This document shows positions 3,595 to 32,815 of a DNA stretch of 56,434 nucleotides, in pieces. Numbering within the stretch: the first letter of the stretch is position 1; every line of letters starts with the position of its first letter. The position numbers and the translations under genes were made by a program. A model generated the notes under the pieces. That model had not been told where the DNA came from, searched no databases, and was given only the letters and a program-made list of their open reading frames with translations. Origin of the DNA: Candidatus Staskawiczbacteria bacterium (lineage in GTDB: Bacteria; Patescibacteriota; Minisyncoccia; Minisyncoccales; Staskawiczbacteraceae); assembly GCA_903845295.1 (NCBI GenBank), contig CAIMWV010000010.1, positions 1-56,434 of the forward strand, in the 5' to 3' direction.

Positions 3595-3624
3595 AAAAAC
3601 ACCCGGCGCGCCGGGTGTTTTTTT
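3595..3624. terminator. Intrinsic terminator downstream of lepA (possibly bidirectional)
   Basis: AAAAACACCCGG-CGCG-CCGGGTGTTTTTTT. Confidence 0.8.
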
Positions 3625-3631
3625 ATAAATA

Positions 3632-3671
3632 TTATGCTCTGAAAACTTCTACCCTTCGGCAAGCTCAGGGT
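3632..3671 (-). repeat. REP-like palindrome (3651-3671) plus orphan duplicate lepA tail (3632-3651)
   Basis: Minus strand after the lepA stop: ACCCTGAGCTTGCCGAAGGG TA GAA GTT TTC AGA GCA TAA = EVFRA*. Confidence 0.85.
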
Positions 3672-5474
3672 CTACGCACGAAAAACTTCTAAAAATGCTT
3701 TTGTCGGGACGTTTACCTTTCCCTTTGCTTTCATCAGCTTTTTACCTTTTTTCTGCTTTTCCCTAAGCTTGTTTTTCCTTGTTATATCTCCACCGTACAA
3801 ATATCCTGCGACATCTTTCATATAGGCCCTGATTGTTTCCCTGGCGATGACTTTTCCTCCGATTACCGCCTGCAAGGCAACGGAAAATTGCTCGGGAGGC
3901 AGGACTTCCTTTAATTTTTCAACCATTTTCTTTCCCTCAAAATAAGCTTCATCCTGAGCGACAATCCTTGAAAATGCCTCCTCTTTCTGGCCGGCAACCC
4001 AAATTTCCATTTTCGCCAGCTTGCCGGGCCTATACCCTAAAAGGTTATAACTCATTGAGGCATAACCCTGGCTGGCGGTTTTTATTTTGTCGTATAAATT
4101 GGCAATGATGCCCCGCAAAGGAGTTTCAAAAATTATGATTACCCTTTCCGGACTCAGATAATTTGTCGTAATATAATTTCCTTTCAGACTCTTTAAAATT
4201 TCCATTAATTTTCCCACCTGGTTTGACGGAGCAATAACTTCCAAGGACACCCACGGCTCCTCAGTACTCTTTATTGCAGAAGGATTTTCCGGCCAGTCAG
4301 AAGCTGAATAGATCAAAATCTCCTTGCCTTTCTGGTTAAAAATTTTATAAACAACCGACGGCGTTGAAATCACCAGATCCAAACCAAATTCCCTCTGCAA
4401 TCTTTCTGAAATAATTTCTATATGCAAAGTTCCCAAAAATCCACAGTTAAATCCCCTGCCTAAAGCTTCTTTCATTTCCTGTTCAAAAACCAGCGCGGGA
4501 TCCGATAGTTTCAATTTTGACAAGGCAACCTTCAATAAATCGAAATCATCCGGATTTTCCGGATACAAGCTGGCAAAAACCATGGGCTTCGGCTTTTGGT
4601 ATCCGGGCAAAGGCTCAACCGTACCCCTTGTATTTATATTCTGTAATTTTATAATCGTATCTCCGGCTGTAACTTTTCCGGGCTCCTTAATTCCTGTGGC
4701 AATATACCCGATGTCGCCGGCCTTAATTTTATCTTTTGGCGCAAATGTCGGATTTAAATACCCTAATTCTTTTACTTCAGCCGGGGTTTTGGTTGCCATC
4801 AACTCAATTTTTTCTCCGTTGGAAATCTCCCCGTCAACAACGCGCACAAAAGCAATAACGCCTTTAAAAGAATCGTATTCCGAATCAAAAATTAGAGCCC
4901 GGAAATCATTTTTTACAGATTCTTTCGGAGGAGGAACTTCTTTTATAATTGTTGCTAAAACTTGCTCAACGTTTGTTCCGTCTTTGGCGGAAATTTTCAG
5001 AATTTCTTCCGGTAAAACCTGCAACAGATTTGAAAGCTCTTCAACTGTTTCTTCCACCCTTGCAATCGGAGAGTCAATTTTGTTTACAACCGGAATAATT
5101 TTTAGATTTTGATTTTTTGCCAATTCCAAATTAGCCAATGTCTGCGCCTGGATTCCCTGGGTTGCATCAACCAATAAAACAGTTCCTTCAACTGCTTCCA
5201 AAGACCTTGAAACCTCGTAAGAAAAATCAACGTGGCCGGGGGTATCAACCAAATTCAAAATATAATCTTTGCCCTCAAATTTATAATTCATCCTTATAGC
5301 TTTCAGCTTTATGGTAATCCCCTTTTCTCTTTCCAAATCCATAGAATCTAAAAACTGTGGCATCATTTTTTTTGGATCAATAGTTCCGGTCAACTCCAAA
5401 AGCCGATCGGCTAATGTACTCTTGCCGTGGTCAATGTGTGCAATTATTGAAAAATTTCTTATATTTTCTTGCAT
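3672..5474 (-). CDS. lepA: Translation elongation factor 4 (LepA)
   Basis: IRNFSIIAHIDHGKSTLADR, DTPGHVDF, NKID, YGGDITRK. Confidence 0.98.
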   Translation of the reverse strand: MQENIRNFSIIAHIDHGKSTLADRLLELTGTIDPKKMMPQFLDSMDLEREKGITIKLKAIRMNYKFEGKDYILNLVDTPGHVDFSYEVSRSLEAVEGTVLLVDATQGIQAQTLANLELAKNQNLKIIPVVNKIDSPIARVEETVEELSNLLQVLPEEILKISAKDGTNVEQVLATIIKEVPPPKESVKNDFRALIFDSEYDSFKGVIAFVRVVDGEISNGEKIELMATKTPAEVKELGYLNPTFAPKDKIKAGDIGYIATGIKEPGKVTAGDTIIKLQNINTRGTVEPLPGYQKPKPMVFASLYPENPDDFDLLKVALSKLKLSDPALVFEQEMKEALGRGFNCGFLGTLHIEIISERLQREFGLDLVISTPSVVYKIFNQKGKEILIYSASDWPENPSAIKSTEEPWVSLEVIAPSNQVGKLMEILKSLKGNYITTNYLSPERVIIIFETPLRGIIANLYDKIKTASQGYASMSYNLLGYRPGKLAKMEIWVAGQKEEAFSRIVAQDEAYFEGKKMVEKLKEVLPPEQFSVALQAVIGGKVIARETIRAYMKDVAGYLYGGDITRKNKLREKQKKGKKLMKAKGKVNVPTKAFLEVFRA

Positions 5475-5483
5475 TTTATTTCT

Positions 5484-7157
5484 TCAAAATTTTTGTTCCT
5501 TAGCTGGATATAAAAACTTTTTTAGGAATGAGTCAATTATGGTTTTGTTCTCGGGAGATTTTAGTAAATGGGTAGCGATGGCATAAGTTACAACGCCGGC
5601 AGTTCCGGATATAATTAATTGGAAAAATATTCCCCAGAAGGTCTGTAAGCTTACAACTGACCCGAGCCACTGCCTTATTAAAAAAGTAAGAATAAACATT
5701 ATTAAGCTGGCAATTAATATTTTATATATAGAATTATGAATTTCTTCCACGTGTAATTTTGGAAATTTTTTATAAAACATATACAAAAGCAAAGAACATT
5801 CTAAAACAGCTGTAATTGTATAAGCCAAAGCCAAAGCAATAACGCCAATATTTGCAACTCCCCCCAATCTTAATATGCTTTGCAAAAAAAGATTAAATCC
5901 GGCTGAAAACCTGACAAGCCACACAAGCAGCAAGCTAAGTGCTATATTAAAAGCAACTGTCAATCCGCTGATTATTGCCGGAATTTTTGTGTTATGGGCT
6001 GCATAAAATGTTTTTGATAAAAATAAAATAAGCGCCTGGGCAATTAAGTTTAAAGCTAAAATACCGAGGCAGGCGGTTGTTAATTTTGTATCTGCCCAGC
6101 CAAATTTGCCGACTCCCAAAACAACCCTGACTATCTGCGCCCTTAAAATCAAAAGAAGCAAACTTATTGGAACTACCAAAAAAATAATCTGGCGGAATAT
6201 GCTGGAAAACTTTCTTAAAAACTCGTCATTTTCTTCTTTCAAAAAAGCCATGGACATTGAGGGAAAGGCGGCTGTTGAAACAGAAACTGCGACAGCGTTG
6301 ACCAGAATTGATGACAAATTATTTGCCAAATTAAAAACTGCTATAGAACCTGACAACAAAGTTGAAGCAATTGCCGTGGTGGCAATTGTGTTCAGCTGCC
6401 CGGCCCCTAATCCCAATGACCTTGGAATCATCATTTTTATTGTTTTTACAACTCCGGGATCTTTATAGTTAAAACTTGCCTTATATCTAAAACCGGAAAA
6501 AAAGAATGCCGGCAACTGGACTATTAAGTGCAAAATTCCCCCCAACACCACTCCCCAAGCCAGCCCTTGCAACCCAAATTTTGGCACAAAAAATAAAATC
6601 CCGATTATTATGCCAAGGTTATATAATAAAGGGGCTAAAGCTGTTACCAAAAATCTGTGAAAAACCTGCAAAATCCCGCTTATCATATTTGAAGCCCCCA
6701 GAATAATCGGGCTCAAGAACATAATACGCATTAATATAACAGCCATTTCCTTTTTCTGTCCGGAAAATCCCGGAGCCATAAAAGAAACAATTAGCGGAGT
6801 AAAAATTATTAAAATTACGCAAACAATAATTAAAAATCCTAAGAACACATTTAAAAGCGTTGAAACATATCTCCACGCATCTTCTTTGGATTTGATTAAA
6901 TACCCGCTAAATATAGGAATCACTGCCGCTGCTATTGCGCCAAAAATCAAAATCAAAGCAATAAAATCCGGAACAGTAAAAGCTGCATAATAAACATCCA
7001 GTTCATTGCCGGCGCCGAAGGTGCCTGCTAAAAGGCGGTCTCTTAACAAACCTAAAACAGCCGATATTAAATAAGAAATTGCCAATATTAAAGAGGCAGA
7101 ACTTATGGATTTTGTCTGAGAATTAAGAAATTTTTGAATCAATTTTTTTTCTTGCAC
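5484..7157 (-). CDS. murJ: Lipid II flippase MurJ (start may be the TTG at 7142)
   Basis: LGLLRDRLLA..FGAG..LD.YYAAF..PD motif; many transmembrane helices; FYA..NTK.P. Confidence 0.93.
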   Translation of the reverse strand: MQEKKLIQKFLNSQTKSISSASLILAISYLISAVLGLLRDRLLAGTFGAGNELDVYYAAFTVPDFIALILIFGAIAAAVIPIFSGYLIKSKEDAWRYVSTLLNVFLGFLIIVCVILIIFTPLIVSFMAPGFSGQKKEMAVILMRIMFLSPIILGASNMISGILQVFHRFLVTALAPLLYNLGIIIGILFFVPKFGLQGLAWGVVLGGILHLIVQLPAFFFSGFRYKASFNYKDPGVVKTIKMMIPRSLGLGAGQLNTIATTAIASTLLSGSIAVFNLANNLSSILVNAVAVSVSTAAFPSMSMAFLKEENDEFLRKFSSIFRQIIFLVVPISLLLLILRAQIVRVVLGVGKFGWADTKLTTACLGILALNLIAQALILFLSKTFYAAHNTKIPAIISGLTVAFNIALSLLLVWLVRFSAGFNLFLQSILRLGGVANIGVIALALAYTITAVLECSLLLYMFYKKFPKLHVEEIHNSIYKILIASLIMFILTFLIRQWLGSVVSLQTFWGIFFQLIISGTAGVVTYAIATHLLKSPENKTIIDSFLKKFLYPAKEQKF

Positions 7158-7188
7158 CCTTCATATATAAATTTTATAGAAGGCTGTA
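7151..7188. repeat. GAAGGGTGC-family palindromic element, copy at the murJ 5' end
   Basis: Minus strand TACAGCCTTCTATAAAATTTATATATGAAGGGTGCAAG; similar to 9464-9500 and 13739-13776. Confidence 0.75.
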
Positions 7189-7233
7189 TTAATTAATCAT
7201 GATAACCTTTTTTTCTATTTTTTTCAAACAAAC

Positions 7234-7262
7234 AAAAAGCTCGATTTAAAATCGAGTTTTTT
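7234..7262 (-). terminator. Intrinsic terminator after RNase P RNA
   Basis: AAAAAGCTCGATTT-A-AAATCGAGTTTTTT hairpin with A/T tracts. Confidence 0.65.
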
Positions 7263-7265
7263 GTT

Positions 7266-7626
7266 GTCCCAGCAAGACTATAAGCCGAATTCTGTATTAT
7301 GTGATTATCTGTCTTGGCCAATGATTACCCATTAGCTCAGGCGAACTACTTTTAACAGAAGCTTGAGATGTATTTAACCCAATCTCCTGCTTTGTTCTTG
7401 CACCCAATAAGGATTTAGCCGTTTCATTTCAACCTTTCGATTGAACTCGCCCTATTCATCTTGCGATGACGGGCGCCTCGCCCTTTCGGGCTCGGCGTTT
7501 CTGTTCGCACCTCTGTCTTACGACCGATGGCTGTTAGCCACTACATTTTTAACTCCCGAAAAGGGGCGTTGGTGTTCGGACTTTCCTCTCCCTATAACAG
7601 GGAGCAATCACTCATCTTGCTGAGAC
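7266..7626 (-). ncRNA. rnpB: RNase P RNA
   Basis: Minus strand has GAGGAAAGTCCG near the 5' end and ACAGAATTCGGCTTA near the 3' end. P1 helix GTCTCAGCAAGA/TCTTGCTGGGAC. Confidence 0.93.
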
Positions 7627-7632
7627 ACCTTT

Positions 7633-7660
7633 ACTATACCAGATAATGGTGTTGTGTCAA
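7633..7660 (-). promoter_or_regulatory. Sigma70 promoter for rnpB
   Basis: TTGACA-16 nt-TATAGT, ending 6 nt upstream of the RNA 5' end. Confidence 0.65.
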
Positions 7661-7730
7661 GTTGAAATTATTTGACTAAAAATTTCCAGAATTATATGAT
7701 AACCTCGGGACACGAAAAGAGAGGTGCAAT

Positions 7731-8021
7731 ATGCTGAAAGATAATATCTCGAGAGAGCTGATAATTTGGCTGCTGCTATTTATAGCGGGAGCCATTGCTT
7801 CAATGTTCTTTGTCATCTACCGAATAGTTGCCATAATTTTCTTCCTGATTTTCTTCACGATGACGCTGAAAAAAACCTCCAAAGACCGGAAACTCAGCGC
7901 ACAAGGAGATCGCTTAGCCGTTTTTTTTGGCAACTTTTTAGGAGCTGTTTTACGCGGAATTACCTGGCCGGTTTTTTTAATATGGCCATACAAACATTCC
8001 GATAAAACAGACGATCACTAA
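7731..8021 (+). CDS. Hypothetical small membrane protein
   Basis: GAGGTG RBS, hydrophobic segments, terminator-like hairpin at 8021-8055. Confidence 0.65.
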   Translation: MLKDNISRELIIWLLLFIAGAIASMFFVIYRIVAIIFFLIFFTMTLKKTSKDRKLSAQGDRLAVFFGNFLGAVLRGITWPVFLIWPYKHSDKTDDH

Positions 8022-8069
8022 AAAACCCGGCGCGTGAACCGGGTTTGTTTTTTTTCTAACAAAACTAAT

Positions 8070-8615
8070 TTATTTTTTTATATAAACATAAATTTTATCT
8101 TCCTCCTTGGCAGGAAGCCATGTCGGAAGGGTAAAATAGTTTGATACAATCCTTGCTCCGGGCTTTAATTCCCTTTCAAATTTCTTTTCCAATCTTTTCA
8201 TCATGTGCTTCATGCCGAAAACAACGACAGCGTCAAAATCTTTTAAATCTTGGCGCCAAAAACTTTTACAATAAATAAACGCTGAACCGTCTGATCCTGC
8301 TTCTTTTATATTTTCCCTTGCCTTAGAGACTAAAAGAGGATTAATTTCATAACCGTAAGCTTTAGCTCCCTCTTTTGCCAAAGCAATAAGTAATCTGCCG
8401 TCCCCTGCGCCCAAATCAACAACGGTTTGACTGGGCTTTATTTCTAAAAGTTTTACCATCTTTCCAACTCTTTCTTTTGTGGTTGGAACATAAATCGCTC
8501 CCCAAAACAAAAAAGGATACACATATCCCCAAATTTTTACTAAAAATACAAGCGGAATTACCACAAAAACGATTGCTAAAAATAAAACTAATAAAAAAAT
8601 TAAGTAAAAACCCAT
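8070..8615 (-). CDS. Membrane-anchored class I SAM-dependent methyltransferase
   Basis: N-terminal TM, GAIYVPT, VDLGAGDGR, GYEINP, LKPGARIVS. Confidence 0.88.
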   Translation of the reverse strand: MGFYLIFLLVLFLAIVFVVIPLVFLVKIWGYVYPFLFWGAIYVPTTKERVGKMVKLLEIKPSQTVVDLGAGDGRLLIALAKEGAKAYGYEINPLLVSKARENIKEAGSDGSAFIYCKSFWRQDLKDFDAVVVFGMKHMMKRLEKKFERELKPGARIVSNYFTLPTWLPAKEEDKIYVYIKK

Positions 8616-8687
8616 TTTTAAAAAGAACGCCCGCTGCCCATCTCGGGTCGGCGGGACATTCTTTGTTTTAAAGTATAAATACTAGCC

Positions 8688-8873
8688 TTAGCAGCACTTG
8701 CACTTTACCATTTTCGTCACTCCTATAACTATCAAAAGAAGGGGCCAAATAAAACTTACGAAACCGGGTGTTAGTATATTCATTCCCCCCAACAAAATCA
8801 CTAAACCAATCAAAGCAATGCACGCTGGTACTATTTTATGATGCGTGCATTTGCAAACTTTTTTATCCTCCAT
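8688..8873 (-). CDS. Small two-TM protein with Cys/His-rich termini
   Basis: CKCTHH...WPLLLIVIG...CKCC. Confidence 0.65.
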   Translation of the reverse strand: MEDKKVCKCTHHKIVPACIALIGLVILLGGMNILTPGFVSFIWPLLLIVIGVTKMVKCKCC

Positions 8874-8917
8874 AATTTTATTTTTTATTTTTTTAATTAT
8901 ATAGACCTTTAGCTTAT

Positions 8918-8963
8918 TTTACCCCCACACCATAAAATTTTCAATTTTTGGTGTGAGGGTAAA
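8918..8963. repeat. Hairpin / REP-like element downstream of rnhA
   Basis: TTTACCCCCACACCA...TGGTGTGAGGGTAAA. Confidence 0.6.
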
Positions 8964-8971
8964 CCACAATT

Positions 8972-9415
8972 TTAAAGCAGCTGCATGATTCCTGTTTGTT
9001 GGTCTAAGGCTTCGTTCACCAGCCTGTCGGCCTCTTTATTTCTTTCCCGCGGAATGTGCTTGAATTTCACCGATTTGAAATCAAATTTTAAATTCCAGAT
9101 TTCTATAAAAAATTGCTGTATTTTCGGATCTGACAACCTGTAGTCGCCGTTCAATTGTTTTACAACCAATTCCGAATCAGCCCTTATTTCTACATCCGAT
9201 ATTTCGGCTATGGATTTCCCGAACAGCGCCTTAAATTTTTTCAATGCAAAAATAATTGCGTTATATTCAGCATCATTGTTTGTTAAGTTGTCTCCCAAAT
9301 ATTCGCCATATTTTTTTATAATCTGCTCTTTCTCATTATAAAAAACAACCCCTATGGCGGCCTTCCCCGGGTTGCCTCTCGACCCCCCATCAGTATAAAC
9401 TATTATTTTTTTCAT
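8972..9415 (-). CDS. rnhA: Ribonuclease HI family protein
   Basis: YTDGGSRGNPG, TNN.AEY, DSELVV.Q, N..AD.L.N.ALD. Confidence 0.9.
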   Translation of the reverse strand: MKKIIVYTDGGSRGNPGKAAIGVVFYNEKEQIIKKYGEYLGDNLTNNDAEYNAIIFALKKFKALFGKSIAEISDVEIRADSELVVKQLNGDYRLSDPKIQQFFIEIWNLKFDFKSVKFKHIPRERNKEADRLVNEALDQQTGIMQLL

Positions 9416-9463
9416 AAATATTTTATTTTCTACTGCACCCTTCCCATAAAAAATGGGGATCTG

Positions 9464-9521
9464 CTCGCAACCATCATATAAAAAATATATACAAGGTTGT
9501 GTAGATGATAATTTTTTTCAT
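9464..9521 (-). repeat. GAAGGGTGC-family element plus orphan rnhA head MKKIIIYT (9498-9521)
   Basis: Minus strand ATG AAA AAA ATT ATC ATC TAC ACA ACCTTGTATATATTTTTTATATGATGGTTGCGAG; the real gene starts MKKIIVYTDGG. Confidence 0.8.
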
Positions 9522-9549
9522 AATTAAAATTCCTTTAATTATTTTTCAG

Positions 9550-10140
9550 TTAATTATTTGAAGCCTCCAAAACATTTATACCGAAATTTTTGAGTTCTGC
9601 AACTAATGGCAGCACCGGCAAGCCGACAATATTAAAGTAATCTCCCTCAATTTTTTCTATAAAAATCCCTCCGCGATGTTGCATGGCATAGGCTCCGGCT
9701 TTATCTAACGGCTCTCCCAGCGCAATATAGTCATCTATGTCTTTTTCGGGAATGTTTGTCACGAAAACTTTGCTTTCCACGGATTTAGAAACTTGTTTGC
9801 CTGTTTCCGTATCAATAATAGTAAAGCCGGTTATGACAGAATGCGCCTTTCCGCTGAGTTTCTGCAGCATAATTTTAGCATTTTCTTTTGCACCAGGTTT
9901 GCCGAGAATCTCTTTACCAAGGACACAAAATGTATCTGCCGCAATAATAATGGAATTCTTATGCCTTTGCGCCACATCTTTTGCTTTTCCCAAAGATAAA
10001 TACTCCGCCAGCTTATCAGGAGGCATATTCAAAGTCATATCCTCTTTATAATTGCTCGGATCCACTTCGAACCTTAAGCCAATCTGCGAAAGCAATCCTC
10101 TTCTCCCGGGAGATGCTGACGCTAATATTATTTTTTTCAT
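9550..10140 (-). CDS. maf: Maf family nucleoside triphosphate pyrophosphatase
   Basis: IILASASP.R, IIAADT, LGKP, EPLDKAGAY, IEGDYFNIVGLP. Confidence 0.95.
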   Translation of the reverse strand: MKKIILASASPGRRGLLSQIGLRFEVDPSNYKEDMTLNMPPDKLAEYLSLGKAKDVAQRHKNSIIIAADTFCVLGKEILGKPGAKENAKIMLQKLSGKAHSVITGFTIIDTETGKQVSKSVESKVFVTNIPEKDIDDYIALGEPLDKAGAYAMQHRGGIFIEKIEGDYFNIVGLPVLPLVAELKNFGINVLEASNN

Positions 10141-10146
10141 CTGATT

Positions 10147-11163
10147 TTATTTGACCGGATTAACAATATTTAAAAATGCGTTACTGATGTCGGCCAAAAA
10201 AGAATTGTCTTGCAATTGTTTGGTCGCGTTTATAAATTCAATCGGGTCAACCCTTGCGCCGCCGACTCTCATTGAAAAATGTAAATGAGGAGCTGTAACA
10301 TAACCCGTATCCCCGGATAATCCTATTACCTGCCCGCGTTTTACTATATCTCCGACAGAAACTTTAAATTCGTCTAAATGCAGGTACATAGAAAATATAT
10401 CCAAGCCATGGTCTATGATAACTGTTTTGCCGTAATTAGACAAATTTAAAGTTGCAATAACTTTCCCGTCGTTAACGACATAAATATCTGTTTTTTCGGG
10501 CGCCCTCAAATCAACTCCGAAGTGCTGAAGTTTATATGGGAAAAATCCGATAAATTTTCCGAATGAAAAACCGCTTATTTTCATTGCACTTAAAGGGAAG
10601 GAAAACGGAGCTGTAAAATACGGCTCTTTGGTAAAAATACTCAAAACTTTTTTTAAAGCAGGGTTGTCGTTTTTTATTATATTATTAACTGCTTTTTCTT
10701 GCGTGGTTCCGTTTTGGCTTATGCTTGGAGCTTTAGCTGCCGGCTCCGATGAAAAATCAGCCAGAGCCACTTTGATATTTTTTGTTAATTTTTCTGTTGC
10801 AGAAACATCAACGGAAATTTTGTAATCGCCCGGATTTTGGTCAGCGTCAATTCCTAAAAAAGACACCCATTCAGAAGAGTTCCCCTTTCTGTAAAAAATG
10901 AGCTTTTGTTCATCCTGGGCCGCGCCGAAGGACTTTCCAAAATTTCCCGTTATCTCGCTAGCATCGCTTTTGACTCTGATAAAAACAGTATCTCCCTGTT
11001 TTGGATTTTCAGGAAAAATATAAACGCTAAGGACCGTTTTATGGAAAAATAAAAAAATTCCTGCCACTAACAAAAGAATGATAATGCCTCCTGCTATCAA
11101 CAAAAAAACAGAAACTTTTTTGTGATGCCATTTGGGTCCTTTTTTACCTTTTTTGTGTTCCAT
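10147..11163 (-). CDS. M23 family metallopeptidase with N-terminal membrane anchor
   Basis: HFGVD, YLHL, TAPHLHF; in-frame REP at 10912-10933. Confidence 0.9.
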   Translation of the reverse strand: MEHKKGKKGPKWHHKKVSVFLLIAGGIIILLLVAGIFLFFHKTVLSVYIFPENPKQGDTVFIRVKSDASEITGNFGKSFGAAQDEQKLIFYRKGNSSEWVSFLGIDADQNPGDYKISVDVSATEKLTKNIKVALADFSSEPAAKAPSISQNGTTQEKAVNNIIKNDNPALKKVLSIFTKEPYFTAPFSFPLSAMKISGFSFGKFIGFFPYKLQHFGVDLRAPEKTDIYVVNDGKVIATLNLSNYGKTVIIDHGLDIFSMYLHLDEFKVSVGDIVKRGQVIGLSGDTGYVTAPHLHFSMRVGGARVDPIEFINATKQLQDNSFLADISNAFLNIVNPVK

Positions 11164-11214
11164 TTGTCTATTATACCAAAAAACACCATTGTGGTGTTTT
11201 TTTTAGTATTTAAT

Positions 11215-11454
11215 CTATGTTAGTCCTTCCTGGTACTCTTTACCATTTAGCGTTGGGAATACCGGATAAATTTTTTGAACACGGCCGACTTGTCCGTCTT
11301 CCAGCCTTACTTTAATGCCGCGGTGATGAAAACTGTCGCTGGTTAAAATTTCCGCCACTTTCCCGCGGGTAAGCTTGCCGGTCGGCTGGTCTTTTTTAAG
11401 CACAATATCCACCTCCGCGCCAATTTTTATATCTGCCCTTTTTTGACCATCCAT
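11215..11454 (-). CDS. YwbE family protein (DUF2196)
   Basis: V.IVLKKDQPTGKLTRG.V..ILT....H.RGIKVRLEDGQVGRVQ.I. Confidence 0.85.
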   Translation of the reverse strand: MDGQKRADIKIGAEVDIVLKKDQPTGKLTRGKVAEILTSDSFHHRGIKVRLEDGQVGRVQKIYPVFPTLNGKEYQEGLT

Positions 11455-11457
11455 TTT

Positions 11458-12609
11458 TCACTTCTTCTTAAAAAATATATTTAAACAGCCTTTGAATTTA
11501 TTTAGGTGTTCATTTTTAATACGGAATCCCGATGCTTGCGCGTGGCCGCCGTAGGTTATTAAAAAATCAGCGCAGGTTTTCATTGCATCCACAGAATTTG
11601 TACCTTTTGGATTCCTGACTGAACCGCAAGATTCCTTATCCATTTTTTTAAAAATAAAAGCCGGCTTTTCATATTTGTTGCAGATTACCGATGCCACGGG
11701 ACCCGCCAAGGTTAATTTCCAGGAAGGATCGCCCTCAAAAATAATCTGCTCATCTTGTTTTTGTGAAATTCTTCTCTCCACTTCCTGTATAATATTTTTG
11801 ACTTGTTGCTGTTTGTATTGGTTTTTATTCAAAAGCGTTTCTGCAATTTCCTTGCATTGTTTATTGTCAGAAGAGGTTAAAAGCAAATATGATTCGTTTT
11901 CAAAGTTTAAGCTTTCTGCCGAGTTCAAAGCAGAAATGATCTTTGGCAAAGATTCCTCAAATACTTTTCCGTCCCCTAAAATATCTAAAAAAGCCCTTAT
12001 TGCGGGGCGGAAAGTATTTTTTAATGACCTTAAACCTTGCTCAATAATTTCCTGATTTTGTTCAATCTGCGGAACCATGTCAGCGATAGTGCCCAAAGCA
12101 GTCAATTCCAAAAAACTATTTTTCAAATTCTGAGAAATTTCCCTGCCTAACATTTCCATGCATAAATTAAAGGTCACTCCGACATTGGCTAATCCCTTGA
12201 ATGGATAACTGTCATCTGTTTGTTTCATATCAACAATTATCGAGGCCTTCGGCACTCCATCTAAGGGTTCGTGGTGGTCAACAATAATGACTTCAAAGCC
12301 CATTTTATTTGCTAAATCAACCTCTTTTAAGTTACCTATGCCGAGATCTAATGTTATAAAAAGCGCAGGGGCCTTATTTTTCAGCATATCTAGGGCTTTC
12401 AAATTTATTCCGTAACCGTCATTTTCTCTGTCGGGGAAAAAAGCGCAATCAATATGTCCTCCCAAATTTTTAATCGCCTCCTCCAGAATAACAACGGATG
12501 ATATCCCGTCTAAATCAGAATCTCCATACAAAATAATGCGCTCTTTATTTTGAACAGCTTTTTTTATCCTTTCCGCCGCCTTCTCAATATTTTTAATCTT
12601 CTGGGTCAT
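11458..12609 (-). CDS. recJ: RecJ-like DHH family phosphoesterase (short form)
   Basis: YGDSDLDG, TLD.G, DHH, LGTIADMV, GSVR, GGHAQASG. Confidence 0.85.
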   Translation of the reverse strand: MTQKIKNIEKAAERIKKAVQNKERIILYGDSDLDGISSVVILEEAIKNLGGHIDCAFFPDRENDGYGINLKALDMLKNKAPALFITLDLGIGNLKEVDLANKMGFEVIIVDHHEPLDGVPKASIIVDMKQTDDSYPFKGLANVGVTFNLCMEMLGREISQNLKNSFLELTALGTIADMVPQIEQNQEIIEQGLRSLKNTFRPAIRAFLDILGDGKVFEESLPKIISALNSAESLNFENESYLLLTSSDNKQCKEIAETLLNKNQYKQQQVKNIIQEVERRISQKQDEQIIFEGDPSWKLTLAGPVASVICNKYEKPAFIFKKMDKESCGSVRNPKGTNSVDAMKTCADFLITYGGHAQASGFRIKNEHLNKFKGCLNIFFKKK

Positions 12610-12615
12610 ATTTTT

Positions 12616-13656
12616 TCACTTTAAAGATTCTAGGCCTGGCAATTTATCTCCGGCGAGATAGCTGAGCATTGCCCCGCCGCCCGTTGAAACGTGGCTGAAG
12701 TTATCAATCATACCTTTTTTATTCAAAAATTCAACAGTCTCGCCCCCTCCGACAACCGAATAAGCCCCGCTGTTTATTATTGCATTTGCGATTGCCAAGG
12801 TACCGGCAGCATATTTTTCATCTTCGAATTTTCCGAACGGGCCATTCCATAAAACTGTTTTTGCCTGCATTATTTTTTCCTGGAAATTTTTTACCGATTC
12901 ATCATTTATATCCAAGGCGTCCAATTGGCCGGTGGGAGCTATTATCTTTTCGGGATATTTGAATTTAATTTTTTGTTCTGCAACTTCTTTTGCTATCAGC
13001 CCGCTCACTATCACATAATCTGATACTTCAGAAATATTATTGATGAATTTTGATTTTGTTTCAACCTTTTTCCCGCCGACAATTGTTACCATGGGTTTTG
13101 CCGGATTTTTCATGACTTTATCTAAAACTTCAATTTCTTTTTCAAGCAACAGACCTTGGCAATGAGGCAAGATTTTTGGCACGCCGGTAATTGAAGCCTG
13201 ATCCCTGTGGCAAACTGAAAATGCATCATTTACATAAATATCCCCTAAAAATGAAAGTCTTTTTGCAAAATCCGGGTTGTTTTCCGTTTCTTCTTTATGA
13301 AATCTTAAATTCTCCAGCAATAAAATTTTTCCGGGCGCCAATTTGTTGCTCTGCTCTTCCACCTCCAATCCCACGCAATCATCCTCCTTCTCAATCGAAA
13401 AATTAAGATATTCTGCCAGTTTTTCAGCAACCTTATCCAGTGTAAGCTCCGGAACAACTTTTCCGTCCGGCTCGCCTAAGTGGCTCATCAAAATGATCTT
13501 TGCCTTATTATCAATTAAATATTGGATTGTCGGCAGGGTTTTTTTAATCCTGAAATCATCTAAAACATTTCCTTTTTCATCAAGGGGAACATTAAAATCA
13601 CATCTTACCAAAACGCGTTTGCCGGTAACATCAAAATCTTTCAAAGTTTTTAACAT
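12616..13656 (-). CDS. pgk: Phosphoglycerate kinase (compact)
   Basis: RVLVRCDFNVP, SHLG, LLENLRF, NDAF, WNGP.G.FE, HVSTGGGA. Confidence 0.95.
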   Translation of the reverse strand: MLKTLKDFDVTGKRVLVRCDFNVPLDEKGNVLDDFRIKKTLPTIQYLIDNKAKIILMSHLGEPDGKVVPELTLDKVAEKLAEYLNFSIEKEDDCVGLEVEEQSNKLAPGKILLLENLRFHKEETENNPDFAKRLSFLGDIYVNDAFSVCHRDQASITGVPKILPHCQGLLLEKEIEVLDKVMKNPAKPMVTIVGGKKVETKSKFINNISEVSDYVIVSGLIAKEVAEQKIKFKYPEKIIAPTGQLDALDINDESVKNFQEKIMQAKTVLWNGPFGKFEDEKYAAGTLAIANAIINSGAYSVVGGGETVEFLNKKGMIDNFSHVSTGGGAMLSYLAGDKLPGLESLK

Positions 13657-13713
13657 ACACAAAGTTCGGATAAAAAAATTAAATAATATATAAACTTATA
13701 TTTCGGAAGAAAG

Positions 13714-13801
13714 CTCGCACCCTTCATTTAAAAAATATCTTGTACCCTTCATATAAAAATTATATAGCAGGCTATATAAAAGGCTGTAAGCTTTTAATCA
13801 T
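13714..13801 (-). repeat. GAAGGGTGC-family elements plus orphan pgk-like head MIKSL (13787-13801)
   Basis: Minus strand ATGATTAAAAGCTTACAGCC...TATAGCCTGCTATATAATTTTTATATGAAGGGTACAAG...ATGAAGGGTGCGAG; the real start is MLKTL. Confidence 0.7.
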
Positions 13802-13830: not shown

Positions 13831-13920
13831 TTAAACCACTTCTTGTTGATAACACTGCTCGCCCTTCGGCTTCCCTTCGGCTCCAATCAGGGCAAGCGCT
13901 CAGGGCTTCATCTACTTTTA
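13831..13920 (-). repeat. Nested REP plus orphan array tail EQCYQQEVV* (13831-13860)
   Basis: GAG CAG TGT TAT CAA CAA GAA GTG GTT TAA preceded by GCCCTGAGCGCTTGCCCTGATTGGAGCCGAAGGGAAGCCGAAGGGC. Confidence 0.85.
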
Positions 13921-16296: not shown

Positions 16297-16386
16297 TTAT
16301 GCCACTTCTGTATTGTAGTATTGCTTGCCCTTCGACAACCCTTCGGCACGGCTCAGGGCAAGCGCTCAGGGCTTCAGTTGCTTTTA
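16297..16386 (-). repeat. Nested REP plus orphan array tail KQYYNTEVA* (16297-16326)
   Basis: Near copy of 13831-13920: TAAATAAAAGCAACTGAAGCCCTGAGCGCTTGCCCTGAGCCGTGCCGAAGGGTTGTCGAAGGGC AAG CAA TAC TAC AAT ACA GAA GTG GCA TAA. Confidence 0.85.
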
Positions 16387-16387
16387 T

Positions 16388-18133
16388 TTATGCCACCTCA
16401 CTATTGTAGCAACTTTTGCAATAAACGATTTCTGGCCTGTCCGGAGCATAAGAAGTTTCAAATTCATTTGGACACTTTTCTTCCCCATGAGAATGATTTT
16501 TCTGCTCGCACATACATTGGCGGTGCCAAAGCTTGATAGGCGTACGCTGGGCAATCCTGGCAAAATGGCGGCAGTTCGGGCACAGTTGCGGAACCGGGAT
16601 GCCCATGCGTTTGTAAAAATTCAGATCGCTCGACGTTACCTTAAAGGCTTCCGTGCATTGGTGGTTGCATTTTCCAGCGTGGGCGCACCCGATTGTTTCC
16701 TTTAAAATTTGTTCATCAACCTGGTCAATCGAGTCCGGAATGTTTTCTGCTTTTAAGGTGATTTTATAATTCTTAGCCGCGAAATCAACCCACCTGTATC
16801 CGTTTTTTAATGCCTCTTCTTTTGACATGGGGAAAAGCTCTTGAGCGATGGTTTCGTTATAGGCGAATCCGTGCATATCCAACGGGAAGGTTGAACCATA
16901 ACGGAATTCCCTTCCCAAAGAGTCTTTGTATGGAAGCGCATCCATTTGCTCTTTGATTCTCGGCACTAATTCTTCATATTCTTCTTTGCTGTATTGTTTA
17001 TTCAAAATGCAATACTGTTTTTTCCGCAAACCGACGCAGCCAAATAAATCAGATGAACTGTGGCAATTTACGCAGTATTGGGCGCGGATTAACTGGTCCC
17101 AACATTCATTTGAAAAAAACACCTGGCTGCACTGGCGGCCGATTGAGGAGCATTCATAAATAAGCTCTGAAAAAGCGGCCCAATATGTAAAATCCATCAC
17201 ATCTTTCCCATCGGTAATTCCAAAAAGATATTTGCCGTCTTCCACTCTTTCGCAATTAAATCCTACCTTCACATTTTTGCATTGCTCTAACCAATTACCC
17301 GAAACATCAGTGCTGTGATTTTCTACAAGACACGGCACGATGTGTTTTGATGAAAATTCTGCCATTTTTTTGCGCATTTCTTCTACTTCCTTGCGACTTT
17401 TTGGCCAAAGTGTTTTAATTTTATCTTTATATTCCTCTTTTGTATATTGCTCGTTGAAAATGCAATAATTCTTATTGCGCAAATTAACGCAACCAAAACA
17501 ATCAGTACAGTTTTTACAATTTAACAAAAAGGCGGAATTTGAGCAGGTACTACATTCTCTTGAATACATCAACCTGTTACAACCATAACAATCAATGCAC
17601 TCAAAACACAGTTCAGACGAATGAATATTATAGTTGTCCATACTATCTTTTGAATCCCAAATTGAAGTGCCGTAAGAACAATTTTCGTTCGTAGAGGCGG
17701 CAAAAATAAGATAACAGTTTTTGTTGTCGCTGGCCCTGTTGGTATATTCGCTGTTTACGTTTGTTCCTTGTTGAATAATTCCCATCCTTGGAACCTTAAG
17801 GAATAAATCTTTAAGCTGCTCGAAAAATGGTTTTTTAAAGTTATAGTCTTTCCCATAAGATTCAGGATCCCATTTGTCAGACCACCAGCAAGAATAGCAA
17901 TAAACAGTGTAGGGGCTTTCCGGCGAATAAAGCAAAATTTTTTCTTTACCGCACAGATTGCACTTTCTTTTAAAAAGAGACCTCTCGCCCCTCCACGCCA
18001 AACGTTTGACCAGCCTGCACTCCGGACACCACGTCGGTGGCGGCACTTTAATCTTCTCATAAAAATTAAAATCGTCGGGCTCAATCATGAACTCCTTTTT
18101 ACAGTTTTGACATGTTCTTTTTTGGCTTTCCAT
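16388..18133 (-). CDS. Cys-rich family protein, array copy 12
   Basis: Same conserved blocks; internal CNLC-x17-CYSC; ends YCKSCYNSEVA. Confidence 0.9.
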   Translation of the reverse strand: MESQKRTCQNCKKEFMIEPDDFNFYEKIKVPPPTWCPECRLVKRLAWRGERSLFKRKCNLCGKEKILLYSPESPYTVYCYSCWWSDKWDPESYGKDYNFKKPFFEQLKDLFLKVPRMGIIQQGTNVNSEYTNRASDNKNCYLIFAASTNENCSYGTSIWDSKDSMDNYNIHSSELCFECIDCYGCNRLMYSRECSTCSNSAFLLNCKNCTDCFGCVNLRNKNYCIFNEQYTKEEYKDKIKTLWPKSRKEVEEMRKKMAEFSSKHIVPCLVENHSTDVSGNWLEQCKNVKVGFNCERVEDGKYLFGITDGKDVMDFTYWAAFSELIYECSSIGRQCSQVFFSNECWDQLIRAQYCVNCHSSSDLFGCVGLRKKQYCILNKQYSKEEYEELVPRIKEQMDALPYKDSLGREFRYGSTFPLDMHGFAYNETIAQELFPMSKEEALKNGYRWVDFAAKNYKITLKAENIPDSIDQVDEQILKETIGCAHAGKCNHQCTEAFKVTSSDLNFYKRMGIPVPQLCPNCRHFARIAQRTPIKLWHRQCMCEQKNHSHGEEKCPNEFETSYAPDRPEIVYCKSCYNSEVA

Positions 18134-32540: not shown

Positions 32541-32815
32541 AGGGTGGCGTTACAATATTAGGACCAACTTAGCGGAGTGAATTAAGGCAATATTCAAGGC
32601 GCGAGGAGCGAACCTAATGCCTATGCGCATTGTTCGATCTGAAGCAACGAAGAAGATTGCCTTAATTCGCCCGCCCTTCGGGAAGTCCAAAAAATGGCTG
32701 ATTTCTGTGGGACTCCTCGTCGGCGTAACGCAGAGGTTACAACCTCCTCGTCGTGCCTCGAAATCATCTCATTTTTTGACTTCTAAATTTGGCCATAATA
32801 TTGTAACGCCACCCT
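32541..32815. mobile_element. MITE (~275 bp) with perfect 20-bp terminal inverted repeats
   Basis: AGGGTGGCGTTACAATATTA ... TAATATTGTAACGCCACCCT; internal hairpins; right end overlaps the TAG stop of array copy 4. Confidence 0.85.

Follow-up and report, generated by a model that had tools for sequence, protein, structure and literature searches.

The stretch of DNA analysed here (the window) comprises 56,434 nucleotides (nt) of contig CAIMWV010000010.1 from a Candidatus Staskawiczbacteria bacterium (assembly GCA_903845295.1). It encodes murJ, rnhA and pgk on its minus strand, and a short hairpin element lies at the 5′ end of each of these genes. An initial annotation, made from the letters of the window, had described a palindrome of about 37 bp at these three places. 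A hidden Markov model (HMM) built on the three copies, then refined and searched against the source genome (G000; 779 kb, 95% complete, 85% coding), bore out all three on the minus strand and set the length of the element at 36 nt, the preceding base being part of the target. At rnhA and pgk the element separates a broken, dead copy of the gene head from a live copy that continues into the gene, and the same anatomy with fixed spacing was found at 83 of 165 loci.

The hairpin element at three genes of the window

At rnhA, a dead and presumably resident head of 22 nt (seven codons and one base, 9500..9521) is followed by an element copy detected by the HMM, a variant with a compensating stem change (9464..9499), and then by a 70-nt cargo (9394..9463). 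This cargo holds a spacer, the live rnhA head (ATG at 9415) and, at 9430-9454, the right half of a second copy in decayed form. The gene is RNase HI-like (8972..9415) and matches RNase H models under their cut-offs. At pgk, the dead head is 15 nt long (five codons, 13787..13801), the element is a nested double (13714..13786) with an inner copy at 13738-13774, and the cargo of 71 nt (13643..13713) brings a spacer and the live head with its ATG at 13656; the gene (12616..13656) matches the PGK model under its cut-off. The duplicate head of rnhA, postulated by the initial annotation, was confirmed with an anchored score of 14, which only 0.16% of 1,260 mismatched pairs reach. For pgk the spacing of about 70-71 nt and the arrangement in relatives fit the same claim, but the score of 6.1 misses the threshold of 6.8. 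The partial copies listed earlier are present, with the correction that the one at 13714-13727 is the right part of the complete outer copy at pgk in which the second copy is nested.

At murJ, in contrast to the earlier claim, no dead head was found. The putative head (MIN*, 7189..7200) is conserved upstream sequence, since the same sequence lies upstream of murJ in element-free relatives (2/10 fully and two more partly; L360 and L365 have a similar one). The element (7151..7186) folds with a z of -2.8 on this strand and is a plain insertion without cargo, 8 nt upstream of the likely start of murJ (5484..7142; TIGR01695 over cut-off). The probable start of the gene is TTG 7142, a codon position at which relatives start as well, rather than the GTG that the repeat contains. 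The earlier proposal that the element entered the first codons and that the gene received a new 5′ end is thus supported for rnhA and pgk and does not hold for murJ. A class A RNase P RNA (7265-7623, minus strand) lies just upstream of murJ and was the sole Rfam match at gathering score between 6900 and 14100, where the element itself was unmatched. Upstream of rnhA, the first bases of maf (9550-10140) are almost those of rnhA itself (MKKII), and maf was not directly upstream of rnhA in 10 relatives; on these grounds maf may itself have been inserted at the rnhA head.

In the element, CAGCCTTY pairs imperfectly with GAAGGGTG to give a stem of 8 bp; the interior is AT-rich, and the 3′ end carries an unpaired tag that reads CRAG, or CTYG on the opposite strand. 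Across 132 copies, the stem shows compensating changes at pair 1-32 (CG in 118, TA in 8), pair 3-30 is a conserved GG mismatch (GG in 126, AT in 6), and the four tag positions are conserved at 97-100%, the R/Y position excepted. The HMM detected 36 full-length copies in G000, while the refined model found one match (E 3.9) on the reversed genome. In total the element occupies 37 loci in G000, of which 36 fall outside genes as called with a simple custom script. For the comparison below, the weak copy inside a coding gene (C35:21805) was dropped and the interrupted copy at C18:10087 was added, giving 36 loci. An interruption is present at nine loci in G000, and at eight of these it is a second copy of the element; a copy at C18:10087-10148 is broken by a 25-nt palindromic insert of a different kind. 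Among the matches listed, taking out 37 nt returned the outer copy to full length in 17/20 nested loci, with the other three one base off. Where a DDE-derived MITE would show a target-site duplication of fixed length, no more than a single base (A) was readable as duplicated in the nested copies. Many nested copies share one common design and probably move as a unit, and for this reason they should not be read as independent events.

Presence of the element is patchy. Pattern matches occurred in 10/24 genomes of the genus, with 1-10 copies each, and in 0/16 genomes of other families. An order-wide pattern scan gave matches in 4/401 genomes, every one within the genus, and a single copy was seen in a different genus of the family (L269). 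Metagenomes held at least 126 stretches with the element; viral contigs gave 0 pattern matches. No copy was found upstream of pgk in 20/20 relatives, of rnhA in 10/10 or of murJ in 10/10. Patchy presence in the genus together with absence at the same genes in relatives is the pattern of mobile DNA, and by this distribution the element is mobile DNA rather than an operator; the shared leader or operator offered earlier as an alternative therefore falls away.

Duplicated gene ends at a fixed spacing

The wider comparison covered 165 distinct loci (36 from G000, 29 from relatives and 100 from metagenomes), which were left from 221 after removal of 40 duplicates, 12 loci with short flanks and four head-to-tail copies. 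The sequence ending at the 5′ edge of the element was searched for downstream, with significance set at the 2.5% level of mismatched pairs. With free spacing (4-130 nt), 76/165 loci were significant, and in 71 of them the duplicate lay 66-78 nt behind the CRAG end; the remaining five lay at 23-41 nt (one of these a nesting artefact), and none beyond 82 nt. When the search was limited to 64-82 nt, 83/165 loci were positive, including 18 in G000, and the duplicate stood 66-82 nt (mean 72) behind the hairpin. The spacing behind single elements (mean 72.2, standard deviation 2.7) equals that behind double elements (70-82 nt at eight loci) and is therefore measured from the CRAG end. The broken copy is always the upstream one and the downstream copy continues into the gene. 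Framing was possible at 71 loci: at 27 of these the duplicate is a gene head and has the strand of the element, and at 44 it is a gene tail of opposite strand, so that the duplicated heads expected by the initial annotation were found but are outnumbered by tails. The 83 loci fall in 48 gene clusters.

Further arrangements show how these units occur. Tandem units of the element plus 75 or 77 nt are found in one relative (G007), two different units stand in series at L175, and one junction is used in four genomes with cargoes that are just 54-70% alike. Loci at which CRAG is followed by C carried cargo in 68/83 cases, those followed by A in 8/64. A weak bias is also seen in the 12 nt that follow CRAG: they gave 40 close pairs, where shuffling gave 23 on average and 43 at the most. 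We rejected subfamily tails in these 12 nt because the 40 pairs stay under that maximum, which shows a positional bias only; pairing of the cargo start with the target, for which the best z of 3.4 in about 1,040 tests is unconvincing; and a coding cargo start, which has stop codons in every frame. Copies without cargo tend to sit near starts: 22/82 end 3-14 nt ahead of a same-strand start codon, compared with 3/82 on the other side. Target preference and selection would each account for this, and a role in translation would be a candidate use.

The junctions share a target motif. YWTR, mostly TTTA, is found at 52/83 dead and 52/83 live copies, against 5.8% nearby, and the base directly before the element belongs to the target, being equal to the base of the live copy in 70/83 loci. 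Discordance of the motif between the two copies is symmetric (6 vs 6), and live copies concord with dead ones in 46/52 cases, compared with 59/109 at control offsets. This agreement suggests that donor and recipient would both be cut at the homologous site.

Dead and live copies have a median identity of 76%. Over 533 codons at 71 loci we counted 321 differences, 216 of them at third, 65 at first and 40 at second codon positions, and among codons with a single change 154/190 (81%) were synonymous, against 19% expected. The two copies therefore did not arise by decay of a duplicate, but diverged while each was still a functional gene in a separate lineage; judged by this silent-site divergence, the live end is from another lineage than the dead stub. 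Which of the two is resident can be read at pgk. The dead head sits there in the arrangement of element-free relatives, four of which share its upstream motif, and one contig from a different study (run X5) represents an element-free allele at the head, joining the dead-type head straight to the gene body; it is a single contig of low likeness and thus modest evidence. An X5 contig also lacks the inner copy (joint 13738-13778). On the basis of the pgk arrangement and the X5 contig, the dead copy is likely the resident one. The initial annotation had the gene rescued later by a new 5′ end; instead, the replacement appears to come in together with the element. That the element is a mobile hairpin which brings a foreign replacement end is, in our judgement, very probable.

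Sister hairpins and a candidate enzyme

Three short sister hairpins in G000 (on C14, C6 and C27) have CCCCG arms, the CRAG end and a cargo of 70-73 nt. Two of them agree with the element at 28/36 bases, and their outer arms match a CCCCG...CGGGG family whose cassettes of 282-284 nt enclose a GIY-YIG protein of 83-85 residues (PF01541). Since GIY-YIG genes are enclosed by sister hairpins that carry the same end tag, we favour an Ssn-like GIY-YIG nuclease as the enzyme, a choice for which we see an even chance. A loose filter for close inverted repeats was passed by 27/92 small GIY-YIG loci of the genus. The CCCCG family often shows 4-nt direct repeats, and in one relative (L023, G016:C8) the start codon of pgk has been entered by a CCCCG-armed GIY-YIG cassette of 283 nt, with a 4-nt direct repeat and a GTG start left; the same gene head has therefore been struck by two related families. 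Y1 presence across the genus was unlinked to element presence, and no integrase or other enzyme gene recurred beside the copies among the matches listed.

A third family, CCCTGAGC...GAAGGG, has CTTG, CCTG or CTCG ahead of 19/32 copies, against a background of 0.9%. It has left scars in the window as well. Next to pgk lies such a scar, at 13831..13906 on the minus strand; it is made up of a nested, tagged hairpin of the CCCTGAGC type (13860-13906) and of the tail displaced from the upstream Cys-rich gene (13831-13862). That gene is one of about 13 Cys-rich paralogs, each 550-600 amino acids long, which stand in tandem on the minus strand (13922-39866); behind at least two of them come a CCCTGAGC hairpin, again nested, and a tail that has been displaced (13831-13906 and 16297-16410). 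A 30-nt inverted repeat, 90% complementary and 215 nt apart, lies at 32541-32570 and 32786-32815. At 3620-3700 the lepA tail is duplicated behind a hairpin of the CCCTGAGC family with a short spacing of 17 nt.

Small GIY-YIG genes occur in other settings, too. At the start of the window, an open reading frame (1-1363), which by its motif may encode a serine recombinase, ends in tRNA-like sequence and adjoins a 79-amino-acid GIY-YIG gene that is similarly placed in many relatives. In G000, apparent tRNA ends are duplicated around hairpin-rich inserts of 120-220 nt with one common end motif (C15:11752, C15:21128, C32:32220, C34:11582, C34:22513 and C6:1651). Four GIY-YIG genes in relatives (L304, L307, L313 and L330, in G009, G016 and G014) are flanked by CGTC/NTS-like inverted repeats and are probable Ssn-SRM pairs in Patescibacteria, judging from these repeats. 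SsnA, a small GIY-YIG protein, is described in the accessible part of its report as cutting single-stranded DNA beside a tagged hairpin and as acting on transforming DNA (PMC11893778). DprA and ComEC are present, and natural competence has been reported for Saccharibacteria, according to the text available to us (PMC10187176).

A proposed route of insertion, its rivals and its meaning

The explanation we prefer as a whole is that a hairpin of 36 nt without a gene of its own moves as single-stranded DNA together with a foreign piece of 72 nt, which guides the insertion and replaces the gene end; we consider it probable. That the piece is discrete and not part of a long tract is, taken separately, likewise probable. 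The proposal starts from a hairpin already joined to its cargo. Foreign DNA would enter via natural transformation, and a nuclease bound to the hairpin would cut at the TTTA-like site at its 5′ edge and a second time at a TTTA-like site about 72 nt past the CRAG end. The excised single strand, hairpin plus some 72 nt, would pair with the gene end to which it corresponds; after a cut in the resident strand at this same site, that strand would be joined to the hairpin, and the old end would be left behind as a stub. The enzyme would most likely be a small stand-alone GIY-YIG nuclease supplied in trans, aided by host recombination and ligation. Only insertions whose piece makes a start or stop complete again would survive, which would place them at gene ends. 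The single-stranded DNA-binding protein SSB of E. coli has binding modes of 65 and 35 nt; the lengths of about 72 and 38 nt recall these modes, and a ruler of this kind is possible by analogy.

Several observations weigh against this explanation. The preference of cargo for C after CRAG is left without account by it; the loci are not independent, given 83 loci in 48 gene clusters; and the anchoring of junctions inflates the agreement of the motif between copies. Identity between genomes shows no sharp fall at the junction, which would be compatible with a longer exchanged tract, and a search of 1.6 Mb gave no donor in which the cargo spacer stands without the element. The CCCCG family in relatives has an anchored duplicate in just 3/19 hairpins (68, 81 and 86 nt) and the CCCTGAGC family in 3/32, near threshold and with differing spacings; cargo is thus rare in both and the cargo rule is not general. 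A GIY-YIG gene flanked by the same repeat is known for the sister CCCCG family, with Pfam assigning PF01541 only, but none of the 92 loci of the genus is bounded by the element's own arms, and matches to the right arm across 79 family genomes gave none either. In a quick tree of weak resolution, the GIY-YIG proteins of CCCCG cassettes branch apart from those beside CGTC-type repeats, and Ssn is reported, in the part of the paper at hand, to cut and not to join or mobilise (PMC11893778).

The main rival is one-ended joining combined with homologous recombination, in which a long incoming strand with the hairpin already on it undergoes recombination inside the gene body, the hairpin end alone is joined to the resident strand, much of the gene is replaced, and the 72 nt reflect the geometry of the joint. 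Identity data across the junction do not separate it from a discrete piece, as some pairs are still 86-90% alike 50 nt past it. The tandem units in G007 could come from unequal crossing-over between two copies, and competence genes are present. However, this rival supplies no ruler for the tight spacing, and the target motif is as frequent in the live as in the dead copy and concordant between them well beyond control offsets, so that we hold it to be unlikely. Less likely still is that the anatomy is as described and the enzyme is an HUH Y1 transposase of the TnpA-REP or IS200/IS605 type, which excises a single-stranded circle and rejoins it. The imperfect hairpin with its conserved mismatch, the unpaired 4-nt tag, the T-rich target and the clean nesting by 37 nt resemble REP and IS200/IS605 ends as far as these are covered in the available text of PMC8266576, and Y1 enzymes are able both to cut and to join. 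But the tag is CTYG and not GTAG, and PF01797 is absent from G000, the genome richest in copies, and from the element-bearing G012, G016, G019 and G008, whereas it is present in many genomes without the element; at 30 Y1 loci there was no full element copy among the matches listed.

Two further explanations are very improbable. A recombination site of the single tyrosine recombinase of the genome, exchanged between copies, would agree with the dyad shape of about 32 bp and with the PF00589 gene roughly 900 nt from one copy, yet chance alone would place one of 37 copies this near, the junctions are at the edge and not at the centre of the element, and element-free alleles lack a half-site. A shared operator or translation leader, or else a long target-site duplication with a decayed spare copy, could call on the cargo-free copies that end within 15 nt of a same-strand ATG and on the 8/83 cargo loci at which the copies are identical over 25 nt. 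The operator is largely refuted by its absence from the same genes in all relatives checked and by the position of 44/71 scored cargo loci at gene tails on the opposite strand, and a decayed duplication would not yield 81% synonymous changes. A CRISPR repeat (there is no array), a loxP- or dif-like site (junctions are at the element edge) and IS91-like ends (CRAG travels with the element) were rejected.

Known systems share parts of this anatomy with the hairpin and its replacement end. Integrative elements that regenerate the gene they enter, such as e14 at icd, also leave a direct repeat of the gene end around the insert and displace the old end; each has one fixed target and an integrase, whereas the target of the element changes with its cargo across 48 gene clusters and no integrase is attached. 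Mobile endonuclease reading frames of fungal mitochondria (Allomyces atp6; Glomus atp6, atp9, cox2 and nad3) bring a foreign gene end in phase and displace the native one, in one case with a GIY-YIG enzyme, but as presented in the accessible part of PMC3630166 they encode their own endonuclease, concern C-termini only and vary in length. The element is bacterial, gene-less and 36 nt long, and it replaces heads and tails at no fewer than 48 gene ends with a fixed length.

Closer in form are REP/REPIN sequences with RAYT (GTAG) and CGTC repeats, which are likewise tagged palindromes of 20-40 nt with a conserved stem mismatch and gene-less spread; an imperfect intergenic hairpin of this size in many copies is found here as well. 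From what the available text of these sources covers (PMC3733652, PMC8266576), they differ in the GTAG tag, dimers, a Y1 gene and the lack of foreign cargo of fixed length, while the element has CTYG, single copies and no Y1 gene in G000. NTS/SRM with Ssn (GIY-YIG, cd10448) also combine a short imperfect intergenic hairpin and an unpaired 4-nt end tag and have expanded in some lineages, and small stand-alone GIY-YIG genes bounded by related repeats exist in this genus, too (PMC11893778, in part). Their tag is CGTC instead of CTYG, the sequence differs and no cognate gene was found for the element; within its accessible sections, the Ssn paper describes cutting and reduced transformation, and no insertion, cargo or gene-end replacement (PMC11893778). 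In the open-access full-text literature we found no description of the element, of a CTYG-tagged class or of fixed-length gene-end replacement.

In the parts of these reports available to us, the spread of gene-less hairpin repeats is an open question (PMC8266576), CGTC repeats were left without an enzyme (PMC3733652), and mobility of repeat-nuclease units was raised as a hypothesis only (PMC11893778). The element leaves a measurable footprint of exact junctions, target motif, fixed cargo length and foreign origin, and this turns the question of spread into a defined assay with oligonucleotides of 36-110 nt and proteins of 80 residues. It lands in essential genes without killing them, likely because it brings a measured piece of the gene of another lineage, and this would be a route for dense, streamlined genomes to tolerate insertions at core genes and to swap start and stop regions between species. 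More tentatively, a superfamily of CTYG-tagged hairpins, moved by GIY-YIG nucleases of 80 residues, might perform DNA-guided insertion, with the captured, ruler-measured foreign piece of 72 nt as the address for the next insertion and retargetable to any gene end. If the cargo does address the insertion, this would be a very compact homology-guided insertion system, and one tiny element would shuffle starts, stops and regulatory spacers between species.

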